A DNA stretch of 64,000 nucleotides from Octopus sinensis (lineage: Eukaryota): positions 51,150,001 to 51,214,000 of the forward strand of contig NC_043015.1 in the NCBI RefSeq assembly GCF_006345805.1. Reading direction: 5' to 3'. Shown one piece after another: positions 6,793 through 59,186 of the stretch (position 1 is its first letter; every line of letters starts with the position of its first letter). The notes beneath the pieces were generated by a model. It was given only the letters and a program-made list of their open reading frames with translations, did not search any database and was not told the origin of the DNA. Position numbers and translations under genes: made by a program.

Positions 6793-9146
6793 GAATTGTT
6801 TCTCTATTATATATTTTAAGCCTTTTGTTAGCATATTTCTGTTGAGATGCTCTGTGTTTCTTCCAGTTACTTTAAATATAAAAAAGAATTTGGTAAAGTA
6901 ACTTAATTATCATTCAGCTAGTGTTAGGAACATAAATTGTGTCTAAAGTTTGGTGGAAGATTTTAATTCAGAACTTATGAAAAGAAAACATTTGTACTAC
7001 AGAGCAAGATGCAGTCTCAGCCAGGTTGGTAACAACTCTACATGGTGTTTTGGTTCCTTTCTCAGAATTTTGGTTTAGACTTGTGGTTTTTAACTATTTT
7101 CTACCTATGGACCCTCTTTGATTCCTATTTTATTCAAGTGGACCCTAATAACCCATTCTATGTTTTAAAAGCTTCTATTATTATTTCCATAATTAAATAT
7201 TATTAGAAACTGTATATAAAATATTGTTAATATATTTTGCATAATGAAGATATGTAACCAAATTAGTGCAGATAAATTTTAAGATCAAAATCTTATATGG
7301 ACCCCCAAGGATCATGTAGACCTCCTTGGAAACATATGGACCATTGTTGAGAGCTACTGATTTCGACTGATAAATACCAAGGTTGACTACTTTGTCATAA
7401 CATTGCTGTTCTGTGTTTTTAGACCTTCTGTGTATCATGCCTGTAAAATATTGTTGCTATCGAGGTGTACCTGACTTCATTTCATCTCACATAAAAAATA
7501 TTGCTATTCTGCTTCAGGGAAACTAAAATTATGTCTTTAGAGAAATTTACAGTTGGTTTACCTTCACAGAGTTTTGCGAGTGAATAAGGCACCTTCTGTT
7601 TGGTCATTCAACTGGTAATGCAGGGATGTCTAACTTGTTTGGTTTTGTGGGTTGGATTCAAGCTGAAACTAGATCTTGTCAGCTGGATAGGTACAATTAT
7701 TTTTAAAAACCTTATTTGTGGTGTAGATACAAAAAAAATGGATAAAGGGGTCAGTATGCATTATGACAACTTTATTAAGAATAAATAAAAGAAAGATATG
7801 CGGTGTTTGCAAAAATTGTATGCAGAGATGTGCACGGAGGAAAAAAAAATTCCTTCCAGATGAGGGTGTATAGGCTTATTGCGTAAATGTCCTTTGAGTG
7901 AGAACTGATAAGAATTTTCCAAATGAATACCTGCTGTTCTTAAGAAGAGCAATGCTTGACAGAAAACTTGCAGTTTCTCTACTGCAAAATCTGTCAACAT
8001 CATTTATGCTACTAGAATCCAGTTGGACAAACACACACAAATTTCGAGAAAAAAGCAAAAAATGTATGAAAATATACAAACAAAAAGAAAAAGCAAAAAA
8101 AAAAGAAACAAATATCCATTTGGCTTGTCCTGTGGAGGGGGACAAAGTGAAGGGGAATAGGTCACATGTCATCGTGTGGATTCATAATCATTTTCATTTG
8201 TTGAGATAACACGGTTCCCGAAGGTGTACTTATTTGATTAATTGGAATCTGTGTTAATTATGGATTTAATCAGGCGTTGATTCTGGGAACATGCTAGTAA
8301 TATTTAGTTTTATATATTTTATAGAATGCTTAAAAATGAGAAAAAACAAAAAAATAGTGAAAATCTATTTTATAAACATTGCTGCAGGTAGGATCTGGCT
8401 TTTGGGCAATATGTTTGACACCCCAGTGCTAAGAAATCCCTTATACTGTACCTCTTTTTGAATAAAACAGGCTAGGGTACATTAGATAATGTAATCCTAG
8501 ATACACCATGCTTGACAAATAAAAAAAAAGCAAGCAAACAAACAAAAAGATGGGATGGTCATAGCTGGACTAACTTTCATCTTAGGTCAGCTGGATCAGG
8601 GCTGATCTCAAGGTTAAAAACCAACAACAATAACCTAAATTTTTGGTGCTGTTGGATATTTCTTGATGTATTAAGTATTATTGATATTTCCTAACCATAA
8701 GCTATTCCTCAATCACATTTGGTAAATTGTCTTTGTATTTGAAAGAATTTCACTGGCTTTGTGTGCCTTTGCATGGAATGTTAATATTTATGATGAAGCC
8801 ATATCAGTTTCTTGTGCGTTCTTCTCTATATAGACTGCCTGATTGGATTTCTCCACAAATTCCCTTTCATCTCTCTTACCTTAATGCAATCCACATCATA
8901 TGACAGAATATTAAACCATAAGGCAAGAAGGACATACAGAGTGAAAAATTGGATTTCAAAAGCTTGATATGCAACATATGTGAAGCCTAAAGAAACAGAT
9001 ACTGCAAAAGACTTTTACAGGACTGTTGTTTCTTAACCCCGAGTAAGCTCTCAATGAACAGACCTATTATGAAAAGTATTCCAGCCATGCCTGTGCCATT
9101 TAGCGTTCCAAATATTATGTATTTAGGTCTGTAATGTGTAATTTGT

Positions 9147-9430
9147 GGAGACATATGGCCTAGTGACTAGAGCAGTGGACTTGCAGTTGAGAGAGTGTGG
9201 GTTCAATTCTCAGTCCGGGCTATGTGTGTGTTTATGAGGGAAACACCTAAGCTCCACGTGGCTTCAGCAGAAGGTAATGGTGAACCTTTGCTGACTCTTT
9301 TGCCACAACTTTCTCTCATTCTCTCCTCCTGTATCTAGCAGCTCACCTGTGACAGACTGGCGTCCCATCCAGGTGGGGAACCTATACAGTATTGAAACCA
9401 GTCTTGGCTCGAGAAAGAACAAACAACAAC
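9147..9430 (+). mobile_element. tRNA-derived SINE family C
   Basis: tggcctagtg...gggttcaattctcag...aaacacctaagctccacg; a second copy lies at 34491-34684. Confidence 0.75.
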
Positions 9431-10169
9431 ATGTAATTGGCTCTTCTTTAATTAGTAATTTATAGTGTTCTCCATTGGTTATGATAACGTGGACTCCAGT
9501 TGAACCGATCAATGGAACAGCCTGCTTTGTGAAATTGGCTGAGCACTCCACAGACATGCATACCCTTAAGGTAGTCCTCGGGGAGATTCAGTCTTTATGT
9601 AAATATAAAGCAAACCCTTACATACAAAACCTGCATCCAAAGGCCTCCTGATTGTGGCCATCCCATCATTCTGTTATTTTGATCAGTCTCAGAATAAAAA
9701 AAAAAGTAGTATTTATTCTATCAAACCCTTTTTGCCAAGTCGCTAAGTAATGGGAGTGCAAATAAACCAACATTGGTTGTCAAGTAATGGTGGGTGACAA
9801 ACACAAACACACACACGAAGCCATGTGGCTTTGGGGTTGGAATATTCAGCCTATGCTCATAAGGTTGTGAGTTCGATTCCCAGCTGTGCCAGACCTTGTC
9901 CTTGAGCAAGAAACTCTATTTCACATTGCACCCATCCAATCAGCTGACAAAAACGAGTGGCACCTGTAATTCAAAGCAGCCAGTCTTGTCACACTCTGTG
10001 TCATGCTGAATCCCCGTGAGCTACTAGGGCTTATAAAGCTGGAGATTAATCTGGTTTCCGTGGCGATTATGTGAATGAGCTTACAACACTCCCTTCCCGA
10101 CTGGGATCTCAGTCCCTCACAGGATTAACTCCCTGGCTATTGTTGGAACTCATTTACAGTCAAGTGGAC

Positions 10170-11130
10170 TGACGTGATGTGAAATCAAGTGTTTTGCTCA
10201 AGAACGGAATGTAGCACCGAGTCTAGGAATTGAAACCACAATCTTACAATCATAAGAGCAGCACTGTAAACACTTAGGCCCTGTGTCTTCACATTTATAT
10301 AAAAACCGGATTAAATTCTGTCTGTTTGGAGGGTTAATGCATTTCTAAATAGCAGCCTGAGTTGAAATGTTTTGTACAAGAACACAACACACTGTTTAGT
10401 CTGAGAATTGAAACTGCAATCTTACAATCATAAGAGCAGCACATGCTTTCACATTTATTTAAAAACCAGATTGAATTCTGTCTGTTGGGAGAGTTAAAGG
10501 ATTTCCAAATATCCAAACAGCAACGTGAAATGACATGTTTAAATGTTTTGCTGAAGAACACACTGTAACTGTATACCTGGGAATTGAAACCTGATTCTCA
10601 TGATCATGAGTGCAACACCCTAATTAGGTCTTGTGCCTTCACATTTATATAAAAGCCAGATTAAATTCTGTCTGTTTGGAGAGTTAAAGGATTTCCAAAT
10701 AGCAGCATGTGATGAAATGTTTTGCTGGAGAACACTATGCCATACCCAGCCTGGGAATTGAAACCACAATCTTGCAATCATTAGAGAAGCACTGTAACCA
10801 CTTAGGCCATGTGCCTGCACATTTATTTAAAAACCAGATTAAATTCTGTCAGTTTGGAGAGTTAAAGGATTCCCAAATAGCAGCATGTGATGATATGTTT
10901 TGCTGGAGAACACTATGCCATACCCAGCCTGGGAATTGAAACCACAGTCTTGCAATCATTAGAGAAGCACTGTAACCACTTAGGCCATGTACCTGCACAT
11001 TTATTTAAAAACCAGATTAAGTTCTGTCAGTTTGGAGAGTTAAAAGATTCCCAAATTGCAATGTGAGTTATTGCCCGGGTCTGGTAATTGAACCCACAAT
11101 CCTATGATCTGTTTGCGGAGTTAATGGCTT
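10170..11130 (-). repeat. Tandem array (about 5.5 units, 160-190 bp) built from a SINE tRNA-like head plus a unique spacer
   Basis: The marker acatttat.taaaa.cc.gatt.a.ttctgtc occurs at 10291, 10451, 10641, 10819 and 10997. Confidence 0.9.
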
Positions 11131-12129
11131 TCCAAACAAATGTTTAAATTTGAATATGAAAATACCATTTCCATTTGGTTAATCACAGTAAGTTTGTTAT
11201 ATTTGTATTCTGTAGAAAATTACCAAGAAAGTTCTGTTCCCGATTCTATTTTCACTTCATCAGTCACACCTAGATGAGCTAATTAAAAATAATTACCTTG
11301 AAGGGAGGTGGAAAGAAAAGTGTGAATGTCACAACTTCTTATTTACTTTACCCTCCACCCTCTGCACGCACTTCTATTAATATGAGACATTCTGAGATAT
11401 TTTCCTTATTTATACGGAAGAAATAATTATCATGGGAAAAAAAAATAAAAAGAACACAAAAACCGTCATCAATATCTTTTGGACTGCATTCTATTTATTA
11501 TTTTTTACACAAGTTTTATGCCAACCCTTTCCTTTTATCTCCTCTCGAATCCTATTGTAACTATTTTTAAAATATTTTCCATCAGTTTTCATAAAGGAGA
11601 GAAAGTAAAAAAAAAACTAGAATGTTGTTTCCCCTACCATGGCTTATTTTAGAGGGGGAGGGCAATGAAGTGGTGACTCACATTCCACTCCTCTTTCTTT
11701 CCTCCTATCACCTCATTCTCTCCCCCTATTGCACTCTCTCGCCCTTTTGCCCCCCCCTCTTCTCCCCCTTTTTCATTTTAGTTTTCTAATACAATGTTAT
11801 TGTCTAATATTTAGGGATCCTTGTTGTAGAGATTTCTGTTCCTTTTGTTTATATTTTGTTTTTATTTTGTGTCCCCTTTTTCTTCCCCTCACCTTTTGAC
11901 CCTTTCTTTATTATTAGGGGGAATCCTAATTTTTTTTTCTTAACTCTACAATAATCATCTCTAATAATTGTAATATTAACAATCTGTTCTAATTCTAGCA
12001 CAATGCCTGCAATTGTGAGGGAGTGGTGGTGGGGGTGATTATATCAACCCCCAATACATGACAGGTACTTTATTATACTGACATCAAATGGAGGAGAAGC
12101 CAAGTCAGGTGCAGCAGGATTTCTGTGGC

Positions 12130-12270
12130 GGGGTGGAAAGAGGTTTGCTTCCCAACAACATGGTTCCGGGTTCAGTCCCACTGCATGGCAGTCTTCTACT
12201 ATAACCTCAGGTCAACCAAAGACTTGGAAATGGATTTGGGAGATGGAAACTGAAAGAAGCCTGTCATATA

Positions 12271-12309
<39 letters not shown>

Positions 12310-12550
12310 ATGTGTGTGTGTGCATGTATGTGTGTGTGTTTGTCCCCCACCCTGACTCCCTGCTTGACGGCCAGTGTTGATGTATTTTATTCCTGTAACT
12401 TAGCGGTTCAGCAAAAGAGACTGATAAAATAAGTACCAGGTTTTAAAAGAAAGTACTGGGCTCAATGAGTTCAATAAAAAGTAATTCTTCAAGGTGGTGT
12501 CCCAGCATGGCCACAGTCTAATGACTGAAACATGCAGAAGCTAAAAGAGA
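12130..12550 (+). mobile_element. SINE family A
   Basis: Degenerate copy of the same head, central (TG)n and tail. Confidence 0.8.
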
Positions 12551-12892
12551 ACAGACGCAATCATATTCGCATCAAGATCTGAAATACTGTGTTGAAACTG
12601 TAGCTTGAGATGTCTTGAGAATGTCTTCAGTGAATTTGAATGGAAATGAAGAAATAGCTTTTGGATTCTACAGTTCTACACAACAGCCTCCTAAGTAGAC
12701 CAAGTGCAGATATGACTAGCATATGGGAACCGGTATGAAGGAAGGATAGGAAAATGTTAGATTTATAAGCGCTAAAATTCACTGCATAATTGCCCACGGC
12801 CATATGGCATAGTGGTTAAGAGTGTGGGCTACTAACCCCAAGATTCCGAGTTTGATTCCAAGCAGTGACCTGAATAATAATAATAATAATTG

Positions 12893-13098
12893 TTTTATTT
12901 GTTTCAGTCATTTGACTGTAGCCATGCTGGAGCACTGCCTTTAGTCGAGCAAATTGACCCCAGGACTTATTCTTTGTAAGCCTAGTACTTATTTTATCGG
13001 TCTCTCTTACTGAACCGCTAAGTGACGGGGGCTGTAAACACACCAGCATCGGTTGTCAAGCGATGTTGGGGGGACAGACACAGACACACAAACATATG

Positions 13099-13132
<34 letters not shown>

Positions 13133-13297
13133 CTATGGGCTTCTTTTCAGTTTCCATCTACCAAATCCACTCGCGAGGCTTTGGTCGGCCCAAGGCTACA
13201 GTAGAAAGCACCTGCCCAAGGTGCCATGCAGTGGGACTGAACCCAGAACCATGTGGTTGGTAAGCAAGCTACTTACGACACAGCCACTCCTGCGCCT
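12893..13297 (-). mobile_element. SINE family A inserted into the (AAT)n linker of the tRNA-head/HHR element
   Basis: Full copy with (AAT)n on both sides. Confidence 0.9.
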
Positions 13298-13369
13298 ATA
13301 ATAATAATAATAATAATGACATCGAAAAATACCTCAGGAATGAGAACCCAGGTTCAAAATTTCCCCAAG

Positions 13370-13414
13370 ACCCCTGATGAAGGCTGGAGGGTATATCAAC
13401 CAAAACGTTGTGTT
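13370..13414 (+). ncRNA. Degenerate minimal hammerhead motif downstream of a tRNA-like head
   Basis: accc-CTGATGA-a-GGCTG-gagggtatat-CAACC-AAAACGTT-gtgt; two G>A changes from CAGCC-GAAACGTT. Confidence 0.6.
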
Positions 13415-14080
13415 AACAAACAAGATAAGGACAAATATCTGTCAAATGTAAATAATGTGAATAATGTACATAATTCCTCATCTCTTAAATATAGAACTGT
13501 AGGATCTGAAATGCTGTGTTGAAACTGTAGCTTGAGATGTCTTGAGAAATAGCTTTTGGGTTATATTTTCCAAAGCTAACAAGGAATGTAGATTTTTTCC
13601 CTTTTTTTTTCATCGTTTGCTGAAAATGGAAAAAAATGGTTAATTTAATATTGAAACGTTTTCAGTGCAGAATATATGTGGCATGTCAGATAAGAACATT
13701 CCTTTATTCTTTTGTTACCATTTCTTCTGTTGAAATATTCTGTTCTTGTTTTCAGTCAGTTATTGAAAATGATGAAGAATTTAGTAGAATAACTTTGTCA
13801 TTTCCATTGTCATTGGAACATAAAAATTGACATGAAATTTTGAAGGAAGGTTTCAATTTACATTACTTGGACTTTTTAGCATTCAGATTACTCAGAGGAG
13901 TTTAATGCCTGTCTGTTCATATTGGTTCGAATTAACCATTGCATTATCTTGTAGTTTTGAGATTTTGATGAGATGATTGTTTATTTTCAGAATGGAACTG
14001 TAGGATGGATGAGAGAAGTTCAGTCTGGTCAGTTTGAATATAAAACTTAGAATATATAGGCCAGATAAAGTAACTAACTA

Positions 14081-14728
14081 AAGACCTTCTTCAGTTATGA
14101 CTGACCATGGAATTGCACCTAGAAGGTTCCCCTCCAAGGCACAAGTCCGTGCAAGGTTGTTTACAGAAGACCAGCAGTCACCCATGCATACCAGCCTCCC
14201 TTCTCCACACCCTTATATGTACATAGGGTAAGGGGTAAAGACCCATTTTGGTCATGACTGACCATGGAATTGCACCTAGAAGGTTCCCCTCCAAAACACA
14301 AGTCCTGGCAATGTTGTTTACAGAAGACCAGCAGTCAGCCATACATACCATCCTCCCTTCTCCACACCATTATATGTACATAGGGTAAGGGGTAAAGACC
14401 CATTTCGGTCATGAATGGCCACAGGATTACTCCTAGAAAGTTCCCCTCCAAGGCACAAGTCTGGGCAAGGTTGTTTATGGAAGACCAGCTGTCACCCATG
14501 CATACCAGCCTCCCCTCTCAATGCCACTGATGTTATCCAAAGGAAAGACAAAGGCTGATACAGCTTGGCACCAGTGATGTTGCAACTCATTACTACAGCT
14601 GAGTGAACTGGAGCAATGTGAAATGAAGTGTCTTGCTCAAGAACACAACACACAGCCCTGTCCAGGAATCGAACTCACTACCTTATGATTTCAAGCCTAA
14701 CATTCTAACCACTGAGCCATGTACCTTT
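14081..14728 (-). mobile_element. SINE family D with triplicated 3' segment
   Basis: Three ~157-bp copies of gaccatgg.attgcacctagaaggttcccctccaa...gaagaccagc precede the head on the + coordinates. Confidence 0.85.
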
Positions 14729-32090: not shown

Positions 32091-32594
32091 GATGTAAGCT
32101 TTTTACCACACAGCCACATGTGTGTGTGTGCGTTTATATATGTGTATATATATTATAAAGGTGTGAGAGGTATTGATATCCAGAAGACCCATGGTAGCAG
32201 GTAACACTATGTAAGTGCTATGGAAGGATTGTAGTTAAACTCTCGGGTTGATATCCGCTTAATACCACCACTACATTCTCAAATTTTCATTCACACCACA
32301 AGACCCCTTTGAATGAACAGCACAGGGAATCTACATCTCCACACTTTCCATTTATGATGACAAAATATGAACTCCTATTGGAATTTACATACTACGAACA
32401 GGAAGCACTTCTACCACTTCTACACACCGCTTTACTTGGACAATGGAACTGCAATTATAACATCTTTATACATTTTTATTTTTATTTCTACATTCATTCT
32501 CCTATTTCACTATATACTCCTTATTTGCTTCCTTTTCCAAAATAACTCCTCATATTGAACTCTAATATTTCTCTCTATTTAACCATCTCACATC

Positions 32595-32642
32595 GTCTCT
32601 GATGAAGGGATATCCTGAATATCCCAGAAACAGCTGTAAGAC
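32595..32642 (+). ncRNA. Minimal type I hammerhead ribozyme motif, near intact
   Basis: GTCT-CTGATGA-a-GGGATAT-cctga-ATATCCC-a-GAA-AC-AGCT-GT-A/AGAC: stem I GTCT:AGAC, 7-bp stem II, palindromic stem III and GUA cleavage triplet. Confidence 0.85.
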
Positions 32643-43208: not shown

Positions 43209-43365
43209 AATGGTGTAATTGGAAGCATTTATCATATTTGGATAATTCAAACGACATGAATATTATTATAAAAGCATCATGGCATGATGGAAAAATCTGT
43301 TTTATATCTGATTACATTCACGGCCTATCAACAGAAACGATATGCGAATTTGAAATCATGAAATC

Positions 43366-43388
43366 ATTATTATTATTATTACCACATC

Positions 43389-43421
<33 letters not shown>

Positions 43422-43443
43422 CGTTATTATTATCGTTATTATC

Positions 43444-43523
<80 letters not shown>

Positions 43524-43685
43524 CGTTATTATTATCGTTATTATTATCGTTATTATCGTTATTATTATTATTATTATTATCATTATTATTATTATCATTA
43601 TTATTTTATTATTATTATTATTATTATTTTATTATTATTATTATTATTATTATTATCATTATTATTATTATTATTATTATTATTA
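43366..43685. repeat. (ATT)n microsatellite
   Basis: Read directly from the sequence. Confidence 0.97.
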
Positions 43686-44075
43686 CGATATCGACCTCTC
43701 TACCACCACAGCTTTATTCTCCATCAACTCATAAACTAAATCAACATGTAATATTCAATTTTTACAAAATATTTCATTGTGTTAATCTTTCAATGCAGCA
43801 ATTATTTACATATTTTCGACCAGAATTCTGACGATTTCTGAAATTTCACTGTTTATTCCATCGAATAAACAGGTTTTCGTCTCTAGTTTCTCTTTTGTTT
43901 TGTTTTGTTTTTTGTTTTTTGTTGTTGATTTTACTCTATTCTAAAAAAGAAGGACATACCAACTGCTGCAACTTTTTTTTTTTTTTTTTTCCTGTTCTGG
44001 CTAAATGGTTTGGAAGCCAGAAAGAATGGTGCAACCATTTCTGTAGATACGGAAAGATACTCTTCTATTCCCCCA

Positions 44076-45221
44076 CTCTCTCTTCCTGCTTCCTCTCTCT
44101 TGCTCTCTGCCTTTGTCTCTCTGCTTCTCTCTCTCTTTCTACTCCCTCTCTCTTGCTCTCTGCCTCTCTCTCTCTCTCTTGCTCTCTGCCGCTCTCTCTC
44201 TCTCTTGCTCTGCTCTCTCTGCCTCTCTCTCTCTTGCTCTCTGCCTATCTCTCTCTCTCTTGCTCTCTGCCTCTCTCTCTCTCTTGCTCTCTGCCTCTCT
44301 CTCTCTCTCTTGCTCTCTGCCTCTCTCTCTCTCTTGCTCTCTGCTTCTCTCTCTCTTCCTCTTCCCTCTCTCTTGCTCACTGCCTCTCTCTCTGCTCACT
44401 GCCTCTCTCTGCTCTCTACCACTCTCTTTTGCTCTCTCTCTCTTTCTACTCTCTCTCTCTCTTTCTCTGCCTCTCTCTCTCTCTCCTCTCTCTTGCTCTC
44501 GTCCGCTCTCTCTCTCTCTGCTCTCTGCCTCTCTCTCTCTCTCTCTTGCTCTCTGCCTCTCTCTCTCTCTTGCTCTCTGCTTCTCTCTCTCTTCTCTTCC
44601 TCTTCCTCTCTCTGCTCCTGCCTCTCTCTTCTCACTCTACTGCCTCTCTCTTGCTCTCTACCTCTCTCTTTTGCTATCTGCTTCTCTCTCTCTCTTCCTG
44701 CTCCCTCTCTCTTGCTCTCTGCTTTTGTCTCTCAGCTTCTCTCTCTCTCTTCATGCTCCCTCTCTCTTTCTCTCTCTCCCTGTATGTGTATGTCTGTGCT
44801 CTATGCGTATCTCTCGCTCTCACTTTTTGCTTGCTCGTTGTCTGTTTTGTCTTTCTCTCTCTCTCTTTTATTGTTTCTCCCTGATTCCCCCTCTCTTACT
44901 CTCCTGTGTTTCTCTCTCTCTCTCTTACTCTCTGTGTTTCTCTCTCTTTCTGTCTTTCTCACAATCTCTCTTTCTCTTTCTCTCCTGCTCTTTCTGTTTG
45001 TGTCTGTGTATTTGTCTATCTGTCTCTCCCCCTCTCACTCTCTCTCCCCTCATTCTCTGTCTCTCTTACTACATCTGTGTCTGTCTCTCTCACTCTACCT
45101 CTCTTTCTTTCTTTTTCTTCATCACTGTCTCATTCTCTGTCCCAGTCTCTCTGCTTCCTCTCCCTCTTCTTTCTGCACCTGTCTGTCTCTGTGTCTCTCT
45201 CTTTCTGTGCCTGTCTGTCTA

Positions 45222-45252
<31 letters not shown>

Positions 45253-45320
45253 GTTTCTTTGATTCTTTGTCTCTCTCTTTCTCTGTGTGTCTGTCTTGGT
45301 CTCCCTGTTTCTCTCTTGCT
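44076..45320. repeat. CT-rich polypyrimidine tract with (ct)n-tgctctctgc units
   Basis: Read directly; source of the long Leu/Ser ORFs. Confidence 0.95.
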
Positions 45321-46189
45321 CCTTAAATATCTCTCAAGCTGTCAAAAGAACCTTCTCACCTTCTCCTGTCAGCGCCAGGTGTGTTTTATGTTTAATGAAT
45401 TAACAGATTACCTGTTGCCACATGACTCCATGAAGAGATTTCCTGAACACATGTTGCATCTTAAAACTGTTGTTACAGTCACCTTACCTGTGAAACATGA
45501 TGTATACAATAGGATGTATTGCACGTTATTTGAAGGCACATGGCTCAGTGGTTAGAGCGTCAGGCTCACAATCATGAGGCAGTGAGTTCGATTCCCAAAC
45601 TGGGCTGTGTGTTGTGTTCTTGAGCAAGACACTTTATGTGTTTTGCTCACATAACATATATATAATATATATATATATACGATGGGCTTCTTTTAGTTTC
45701 CATCTACCAAATCCTCTCTTAAGGCTTTGGTCAGCCCAAGGCTATAGTAGAAGACCCTTGCCCATAGTACCATGTGGTTGGGAAGCAAGCTTCTTACCAC
45801 ACAGCCACTCCATCAATGTCATTCATGAGTTGCTACTGATGACAGATTAGAAGTCATCATCACTTCAACGTTTAATGTCCATCTTCCATGCTGGCATGGT
45901 TGGATGGTACCACAAGATCCACAGTGCTTAAATTTTTTCTGTTTCAAAAGACTTTTTTTTGTAGTTTTACATTTTGCTAGACGGTTGCTATAGTTCCATA
46001 GATTCTGGAGATTTGACGACATTTAGCTAATTACCTAAATATTGCAGTATATATTTTGGCTGGTTTAACACTTTCGGCATTTAAACCAGTCATATCTGGC
46101 CAAAATATTCTACCTGTCTAATCTTCAGATTAACCAGAGCTGGACTCTCACACCTACCCTACAGTGTCATTTTGAAAATAAGCAATCAG

Positions 46190-59004: not shown

Positions 59005-59051
59005 CAAAATGTAACCACATGTGGATCGTTTTGGACTTTTCTCTGTCTCCT

Positions 59052-59086
59052 GTTCCTGACGAAGAGCTTAGCTCGAAACATAAAAC
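59052..59086 (+). ncRNA. Minimal Penelope-type hammerhead motif, degenerate at the cleavage site
   Basis: gttc-CTGACGA-a-GAGC-tta-GCTC-GAAACATA-aaac, inside a ~180-bp element following (TA)n. Confidence 0.7.
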
Positions 59087-59186
59087 TATTTGTCTTTCCT
59101 TCTCTGAGCATCTGCTAATACTTTGCATGTACCACATCCTCATGCTGTTGTTTTTTTCTTGTTGTGTTTTCCCTTGTTTTTTTGGG

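Follow-up and report, generated by a model that had tools for sequence, protein, structure and literature searches.

A tRNA-like block with A and B boxes in the end repeat of an octopus Penelope/Poseidon element: a candidate internal Pol III promoter

SINEs are transcribed by Pol III and travel as passengers of LINEs; autonomous retrotransposons are, to our knowledge, considered to depend on Pol II or on host co-transcription. Hammerhead-bearing Penelope elements are already known, as are Pol III promoters in the terminal repeats of non-autonomous LTR elements. In the Penelope/Poseidon clade, Poseidon_Ac of Anolis and Pen2a_Av of Adineta are described as bearing a single frame of about 840 codons, reverse transcriptase then GIY-YIG nuclease, without a zinc-finger linker (PMC11167929, PMC3846280, PMC8557442). 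The octopus family reported here is built likewise. In that clade and in the octopus family alike, the frame starts in the end repeat and crosses the hammerhead, and insertions show partial tandems, an inverted 5' piece, an optional tail of 30-40 bases and target duplications of 8-15 bp. In Anolis Poseidon the frame overlaps the hammerhead, the ribozyme is reported to cut only with the protein, the tail is delimited by two internal start sites of reverse transcription, and the nuclease prefers ATT (PMC11167929). Promoters described in the group are of Pol II type, whereas the octopus family has candidate Pol III boxes; Drosophila Penelope is described as having a LINE-like internal promoter (PMC2377424).

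Three other systems resemble parts of the octopus unit. The Schistosoma Sm-alpha and Sj-alpha repeats are described as having a tRNA-related promoter upstream of a hammerhead (PMC6765202, PMC2770079), and there as in the octopus family cleavage would sever the promoter from the downstream RNA. Compared by description, Sm-alpha is non-coding, often tandem and has a canonical hammerhead, whereas the octopus unit is the end repeat of a coding element, rarely forms arrays and has a minimal hammerhead. Cassandra, Helenus and Ajax (TRIMp3) carry a small-RNA-derived Pol III promoter in the terminal repeat, probably acquired through SINE insertion, and their autonomous partners are argued to need Pol II (PMC10886601). 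These are non-autonomous LTR elements of 300-1300 bases; the octopus family, in contrast, is an autonomous Penelope-like element of 2.66 kb with the candidate promoter in its own repeat. Finally, animal non-LTR retrozymes are short hammerhead units from Penelope end repeats, as are the octopus short copies (bioRxiv 10.64898/2026.07.22.740005; PMC7761336). Retrozymes are tandem arrays said to be promoterless, while the short copies in octopus have a promoter-like head and lie scattered as single or inverted insertions. The available text of bioRxiv 10.64898/2026.07.22.740005, which proposes that such units derive from Penelope repeats, does not mention a tRNA promoter.

The locus lies in a 64-kb stretch of Octopus sinensis DNA, the whole of which is called the window here. 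It is a 5'-truncated autonomous Penelope/Poseidon element, an ordinary dead fragment, with the order gene end, tRNA-like block, (AAT)n, start codon, hammerhead and two 3' ends. Truncated at 12678, the window copy keeps on the + strand the last 29 codons and the stop of the reverse transcriptase/GIY-YIG frame (12679-12768, with one premature stop). A TATA-like stretch, a candidate Pol II TATA box or TBP site, overlaps the stop codon (12762-12769). It is followed by the zone equivalent to the commonest 5' ends of the family, a likely RNA start (12786-12803, peak 12791), by the tRNA-like block (12798-12870) and by the (AAT)n linker (12873-13317). The start codon and first codons of the gene (13340-13501), whose frame crosses the hammerhead and, where copies lie head-to-tail, continues into the gene body, come next, with the minimal type I hammerhead at 13369-13414. 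The 3' part of the end repeat (13415-13501) includes an optional tail some 36 bases long, and on the 3' side copies of the family end near 13465 and at 13501. From the family consensus the copy differs at 22 of 377 bases.

The initial annotation had read this unit as an Sm-alpha-like repeat, a tRNA-derived Pol III head coupled to a hammerhead. The A box at 12805 (12805-12815), the B-box-like stretch, which begins at 12848 (B box 12850-12859), and the hammerhead remnant are all present, as is the (AAT)n linker interrupted by a nested SINE at 12893-13297, which lies on the minus strand. What had been called a 130-bp leader proved to be coding, since 12679-12768 holds the last codons of the GIY-YIG frame, with about 2.3 kb more upstream in other copies. 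The nested SINE, presumably an octopus SINE, is an abundant, unrelated sequence foreign to the element and a later insertion into the (AAT)n tract; it is absent from the family consensus and recurs in the window, whole or as fragments, more than 10 times. It forms a pair with another copy in opposite orientation at 12125-12549 (+), with about 350 bases between them. Unrelated sequence after the (AAT)n tract was seen in other family copies too.

The ends of the window copy had been described as an 11-bp inverted repeat bracketed by a long duplication of the flank. The inverted repeat is there, 12668-12678 being a minus-strand copy of the element's last 11 bases, but it does not behave as a terminal inverted repeat: none of the 29 other copies selected by the head shows one at that place, 28 extending upstream into the gene and one having a short direct repeat. 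A reading as a terminal inverted repeat or MITE was therefore dropped. That matches to the head start no more than 2 bases from 12678 simply reflects the truncation of the window copy at that point. Since the family shows a Penelope insertion footprint, the 11-bp repeat is best seen as a very short inverted piece of the Penelope-like type; longer inverted pieces occur in many family copies. The flank duplication is also real, 45 of 46 bases being alike at 12576 and 13503, although its length had been misjudged: the left copy spans 12576-12664 (+, 89 bp) and the right one 13503-13559 (+, 57 bp), the latter without a 32-bp segment, bounded by AGAA, that is found on the left. The flank has two matches in the genome, both local, which rules out an old repeat. 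As it is otherwise unique, the duplication most likely arose with the insertion, and is likely a target-site duplication that is atypically long for a Penelope-type element.

In a search of the 2.72-Gb genome, the two halves flanking the nested SINE proved to be one abundant family (4371 and 3962 candidates), with best copies 90-94% identical. The tail sequence was found in all 29 other head-selected loci, nearly always directly downstream of the head. Other copies reach up to 1500 bases or more upstream of 12678 and encode a reverse transcriptase and a GIY-YIG nuclease. Walking upstream through family copies gave a consensus unit of 2659 bases with one open frame of 838 codons, whose ATG lies inside the end repeat; L421 and L424 are complete copies. 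Truncation is graded, 4371 and 3962 search candidates for the 3' parts standing against 273 and 286 for the middle and front of the gene. The family also shows variable 5' truncation, an inverted 5'-side piece, partial tandems and two 3' ends 36 bases apart, and abutting duplications of 8-15 bp were found at 21 of 58 loci. Such a footprint has been described for Penelope-like elements (PMC8557442, PMC3846280). Seven copies (L392, L396, L407, L415, L417, L419 and L420) consist of the end repeat, the first 230-410 bases of the gene and the end repeat again, which suggests template jumps or internal deletion in reverse transcription.

Among three fragments scanned, Pfam RVT_1 was found in two and Pfam GIY-YIG in none, while the nuclease motifs align with those of the Anolis protein P0061 and others. 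The search for homologues found 280 longer proteins. The family protein shares 75% identity with P0002, 57% with P0005 and 37% with P0061; it groups with the last of these, which is not named as Poseidon_Ac in its source. The closest relatives, P0002-P0009, one of them from a barnacle cluster, show 49-67% over the query. P0005 opens with the same peptide pattern as the part of the frame encoded through the hammerhead (start 13340). The zinc-finger linker between reverse transcriptase and nuclease, described as a Neptune/Nematis feature (PMC8557442), is absent from the family protein and present in the same-genome Neptune-type elements L323 and L324. In a 27-row tree, the family's group and the Neptune type were split with support 100/100, with a long-branch warning. 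Frames of 775-883 codons are intact in the Neptune-type Penelope families of this genome (L322-L328; contigs 1, 4, 6, 8 and 10), which, with the identical nuclease scores of several of them, hints at recent activity. Compared with the described Penelope/Poseidon elements (Poseidon_Ac, Pen2a_Av), the octopus family differs in having in its end repeat a tRNA-like block with A and B boxes, and no sense-strand TTTT.

The tRNA-like block comprises 73 bases and begins thirty bases past the stop codon. Its likeness to tRNA, as initially proposed, is above chance: against the best of 27 distinct host tRNAs, the block consensus scored z 8-9 over 200 shuffles. No parent was singled out among these 27 tRNAs of six isotypes. 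The A and B boxes agree with their consensus and are spaced as in a tRNA, while the stems are decayed; the B-box core, which has a C-to-T change in the window copy, is perfect in the family consensus. The block is fixed in the family, as 48 of 65 gene-end copies reach through it. The predicted co-occurrence of block and hammerhead was borne out, the tail being present in 46 of these 48 gene-bearing copies and in 78 of 96 segments found by the B box. Among 24 control elements with gene end and hammerhead visible, none showed an A/B pair at that place, by a screen that finds just 9 of 42 decayed loci of the octopus family itself. With default settings, Rfam and ARAGORN called nothing in the window or in family loci. 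A tRNA call made by ARAGORN on the consensus at a relaxed threshold was discounted and is not used as evidence, because the 24 control stretches gave 8 other calls. Elsewhere, the metagenome Poseidon-type element L141 has an A/B-box pair about 490-550 bases past its gene end, which could be an independent tRNA or SINE or another instance of such a block, and L237 (contig 7) holds a cluster of seven tRNA-Cys-like genes within 3 kb.

The unusual part of the element, as read from the consensus, is thus the tRNA-like block with intact A and B boxes inside a Penelope end repeat. A literature search, Repbase and Dfam lying outside it, returned no account of a tRNA-type promoter in an autonomous Penelope element. 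The arrangement is not described in the available text of the Octopus vulgaris repeat annotation (PMC13282606), the squid genome (PMC6962438) or the retrozyme review (PMC7761336), whose supplements and repeat libraries, outside the search, could list the family.

The exact 27-base B-box motif occurs 1957 times in the genome which, at the divergence of the family, corresponds to an estimate of roughly ten thousand segments. The 5' ends were examined in 90 loci, all on contig 1, covering 94 of the first 100 of these places; after removal of a duplicate, 96 segments at 89 loci remained. Fifty of the 96 begin in 18 bases equivalent to 12786-12803, 38 inside the block and 8 farther upstream. Within the boundary zone 10 segments begin at 12791 and 8 at 12798, a peak that fold-back junctions can inflate. 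Some of the segments are two arms of one insertion. The main boundary (12791) lies 13-14 bases ahead of the A box and 27 bases downstream of the TATA-like stretch, each base of which is kept in at least 100 of about 113 copies. The consensus boundary zone holds a 5-bp palindrome. RNA-seq read depth roughly doubles at the boundary. Among 30 loci picked by the gene front, 25 (23 distinct) have an end repeat joined head-to-tail to the gene; four of the 23 distinct repeats begin within ten bases of the peak, and none continues unbroken more than a few bases beyond it. L421 starts at the boundary and continues through the whole gene to a second repeat. L217 and L398 are tandem-like, with gene-end pieces upstream of the boundary, separated by gaps. 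The A box in the consensus (window 12804-12812) overlaps a minimal upstream frame of ATG, one codon and stop, which could affect the translation of an RNA starting at the 5' boundary.

Short copies outnumber gene-bearing ones by about 88 to 8. A comparison of 55 long and 69 short copies found no fixed differences, three columns differing weakly, and divergence was 6.0 and 6.5% for short and long copies. With no fixed differences and the same age, the SINE-like form is a product of this element. The initial view of the unit as a SINE or retrozyme mobilised by a Penelope-like element thus stands in that Penelope machinery moves it and that the abundant short form starts at the tRNA block, and fails in that the window copy carries gene sequence. 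A short form that is a separate family finds no place in these data, long and short copies sharing the same divergence of about 6%. Judged as a SINE, the family has the tRNA-related head with A and B boxes; a non-coding lineage of its own was not found, as the window copy has the gene upstream and the short copies share the coding consensus. Tandem arrays, also expected initially, are rare: exact-motif pairs at the 89 loci were head-to-head in 6 cases and head-to-tail in 1, a lower bound for direct pairs given the exact motif. In 18 of the 96 segments, block and (AAT)n were found with no tail within 500 bases, which may reflect either interruption, as in the window copy, or separate movement of the head.

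The absence of TTTT in a Pol III unit was predicted before counting. No sense-strand TTTT was found in the 2659-base consensus, based on at least 35 copies per body position, or across the tandem junction, compared with 3.0 expected in the frame from codon shuffles (P 0.025) and 4.5 from base shuffles (P 0.01). TTT runs were at the expected level, and GGGG was also absent (1.1 expected). All 16 control frames contained TTTT (3-19 runs): the nine metagenome Poseidon-type frames totalled 75 (58 expected) and the seven Neptune-type frames of the same genome, drawn from two families, totalled 60 (52 expected), with no frame below 3. These controls hold no second Poseidon family of the same genome, searches with two divergent proteins having largely returned, in their top places, this family's own loci. 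Among control stretches, 7 of 80 were free of TTTT, one of them the 2-kb Poseidon-type stretch L138:3001-4330, where 3.1 runs were expected and no A/B pair precedes the hammerhead. One copy of the octopus family has 2 TTTT runs in 551 codons, and a TTTT immediately precedes the hammerhead in 26 of 267 copies. As a sign of Pol III, the absence of TTTT from the consensus is a modest test, suggestive and not decisive.

The consensus hammerhead has a full core, including the CAGCC and GAAAC segments expected from the initial annotation, with a 5-bp helix I, a 6-bp helix II with a bulged A, and a palindromic ACGT replacing helix III. It is hence of the minimal Penelope type and not Sm-alpha-like as first described; the canonical type I features (helix I of 6 bp, helix II of 4 bp, loop contacts) are lacking. 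The consensus fits the described pattern of minimal dimer-type hammerheads (PMC4209133), and the hammerheads of control Penelope-type elements look alike. The cut is predicted, from the sequence, after GUU at 13409, and ACGT would form a dimeric helix III. Apart from CpG decay, about 90% of some 94 copies retain the core columns. Rfam gave no hammerhead match in the window or in 20 family loci at E up to 1. The energies obtained by folding individual family copies were not significant. No pile-up of DNA copy ends, at either end, was seen at the predicted cut site, and the ribozyme cut was rejected as the end of the element. In the window copy, bases 13372, 13399 and 13402 are changed; the last of these changes is G12A, and the other two break a pair of helix II and affect helix I. 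G12A is reported to slow the full-length hammerhead about a million-fold (PMC2553840), and the earlier view that the ribozyme of this copy is probably dead is therefore fair. Two further motifs lie in the window. At 32591-32640 (+), a minimal hammerhead-like motif outside this family (core, bulged A, hairpin, GAAAC, palindromic helix III) is probably the end repeat of a different Penelope-like element. At 59048-59090 (+), a third hammerhead-like core, with a helix II of 4-5 bp, is unrelated to the family.

Three RNA-seq runs gave 7658-11118 reads on a 1-kb stretch of the family, equal in both directions, with no pile-up of molecule starts or ends on that stretch. Of these reads 75-79% continue into unrelated sequence, as read-through of dispersed copies would. 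The RNA-seq data show that the family sequence is present in RNA and say nothing on its promoter. In six large runs from five organisms, 0.68-0.88 of the repeat's words were present; no RNA run was among the holders listed.

Taken together, these features suggest that the tRNA-like block of the end repeat is an internal Pol III promoter, whose RNA would template both the full-length copies and the commoner short SINE-like ones. We give this reading a probability of about 0.55. The end repeat would have captured a head of tRNA origin, which may have been a simple SINE ending in (AAT)n. Pol III start sites lie 13-14 bases before the A box. Here, transcription by Pol III would begin a few bases ahead of the block and, with no terminator in its way, would extend across the gene and into the second repeat. 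The element's protein would nick AT-rich DNA, and reverse transcription would be primed inside the RNA, about 55 or 90 bases beyond the hammerhead, by analogy with the description of Anolis Poseidon (PMC11167929). Priming in the first repeat would yield a copy of about 300 bases ending at the RNA 5' end, and priming in the second repeat would yield gene-bearing copies, mostly truncated like the window copy. The hammerhead may cut only as a dimer or with the help of the protein, its cut setting neither copy end. A stronger form, in which the autonomous coding element is wholly driven by Pol III, with one uncapped, TTTT-free RNA of about 2.9 kb, cap-free translation and on the order of ten thousand SINE-like copies, is more tentative, and we hold it to be possible rather than probable.

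The chief competitor, unlikely on balance yet not by far, is a division of labour in which Pol III makes the short repeat RNA only and the coding RNA comes from Pol II initiating at the TATA-like stretch, or from tandem read-through. Translation of an uncapped RNA requires an unusual route, a difficulty that two promoters would avoid, and the excess of short over gene-bearing copies (about 88 to 8) would follow readily. The known Penelope promoters are described as Pol II type (PMC2377424), and Kojima argues that Pol III processivity is too weak for autonomous LTR elements (PMC10886601). Two promoters would, however, not explain why 2.5 kb of coding sequence is free of TTTT, and the gene-joined repeats stop at the same boundary as the short ones, leaving the TATA-like stretch outside. 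That stretch at -27 and the palindrome at the boundary also lend themselves to an account that we find more doubtful still, namely that the block is an old passenger insertion, that Pol II initiation or a self-priming palindrome sets the boundary, and that the short copies are plain truncations. The rotifer Penelope repeats are described as having TATA/Inr motifs, 5' palindromes and fixed 5' ends (PMC3846280), and the RNA-seq reads carry no sign of Pol III (no start pile-up). A passenger would hardly keep its boxes intact while its stems decayed, nor would it place the boundary at the Pol III start position, 13-14 bases before the A box; a hairpin stall would leave ends 3' of the hairpin and not 5' of it; and the missing TTTT would again go unaccounted for.

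An independent, non-autonomous Sm-alpha-like SINE or retrozyme family borrowing Penelope enzymes, with the window copy as a member, is very improbable. The form that starts at the tRNA block is the commonest one, its copies insert with a Penelope footprint and, keeping the promoter, they could breed on their own. For the window copy such a family is already contradicted by the gene sequence that it carries; moreover, the 55 long and 69 short copies show no fixed differences, the hammerhead tail encodes the element's own N-terminus, and arrays are rare. If the promoter reading holds, an autonomous Penelope element with its own Pol III promoter would break the division between SINEs and autonomous elements, offer one way for a SINE-like family to emerge straight from the element that drives it, and provide a model for the origin of the Schistosoma promoter-plus-hammerhead repeats. 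As thousands of copy 5' ends appear to record the RNA start, the family may offer a precise way of asking which RNA serves as the template of Penelope elements.

Two other features of the window lie outside the element. Downstream of the locus, from 14079 to 14500 and beyond, there is a tandem repeat with a 157-bp unit in at least 3 copies that are 83-90% alike. At 43211-45555, several overlapping long frames on the + strand (206-502 codons) adjoin (AAT)n arrays, and may belong to a repeat array or a retroelement remnant.
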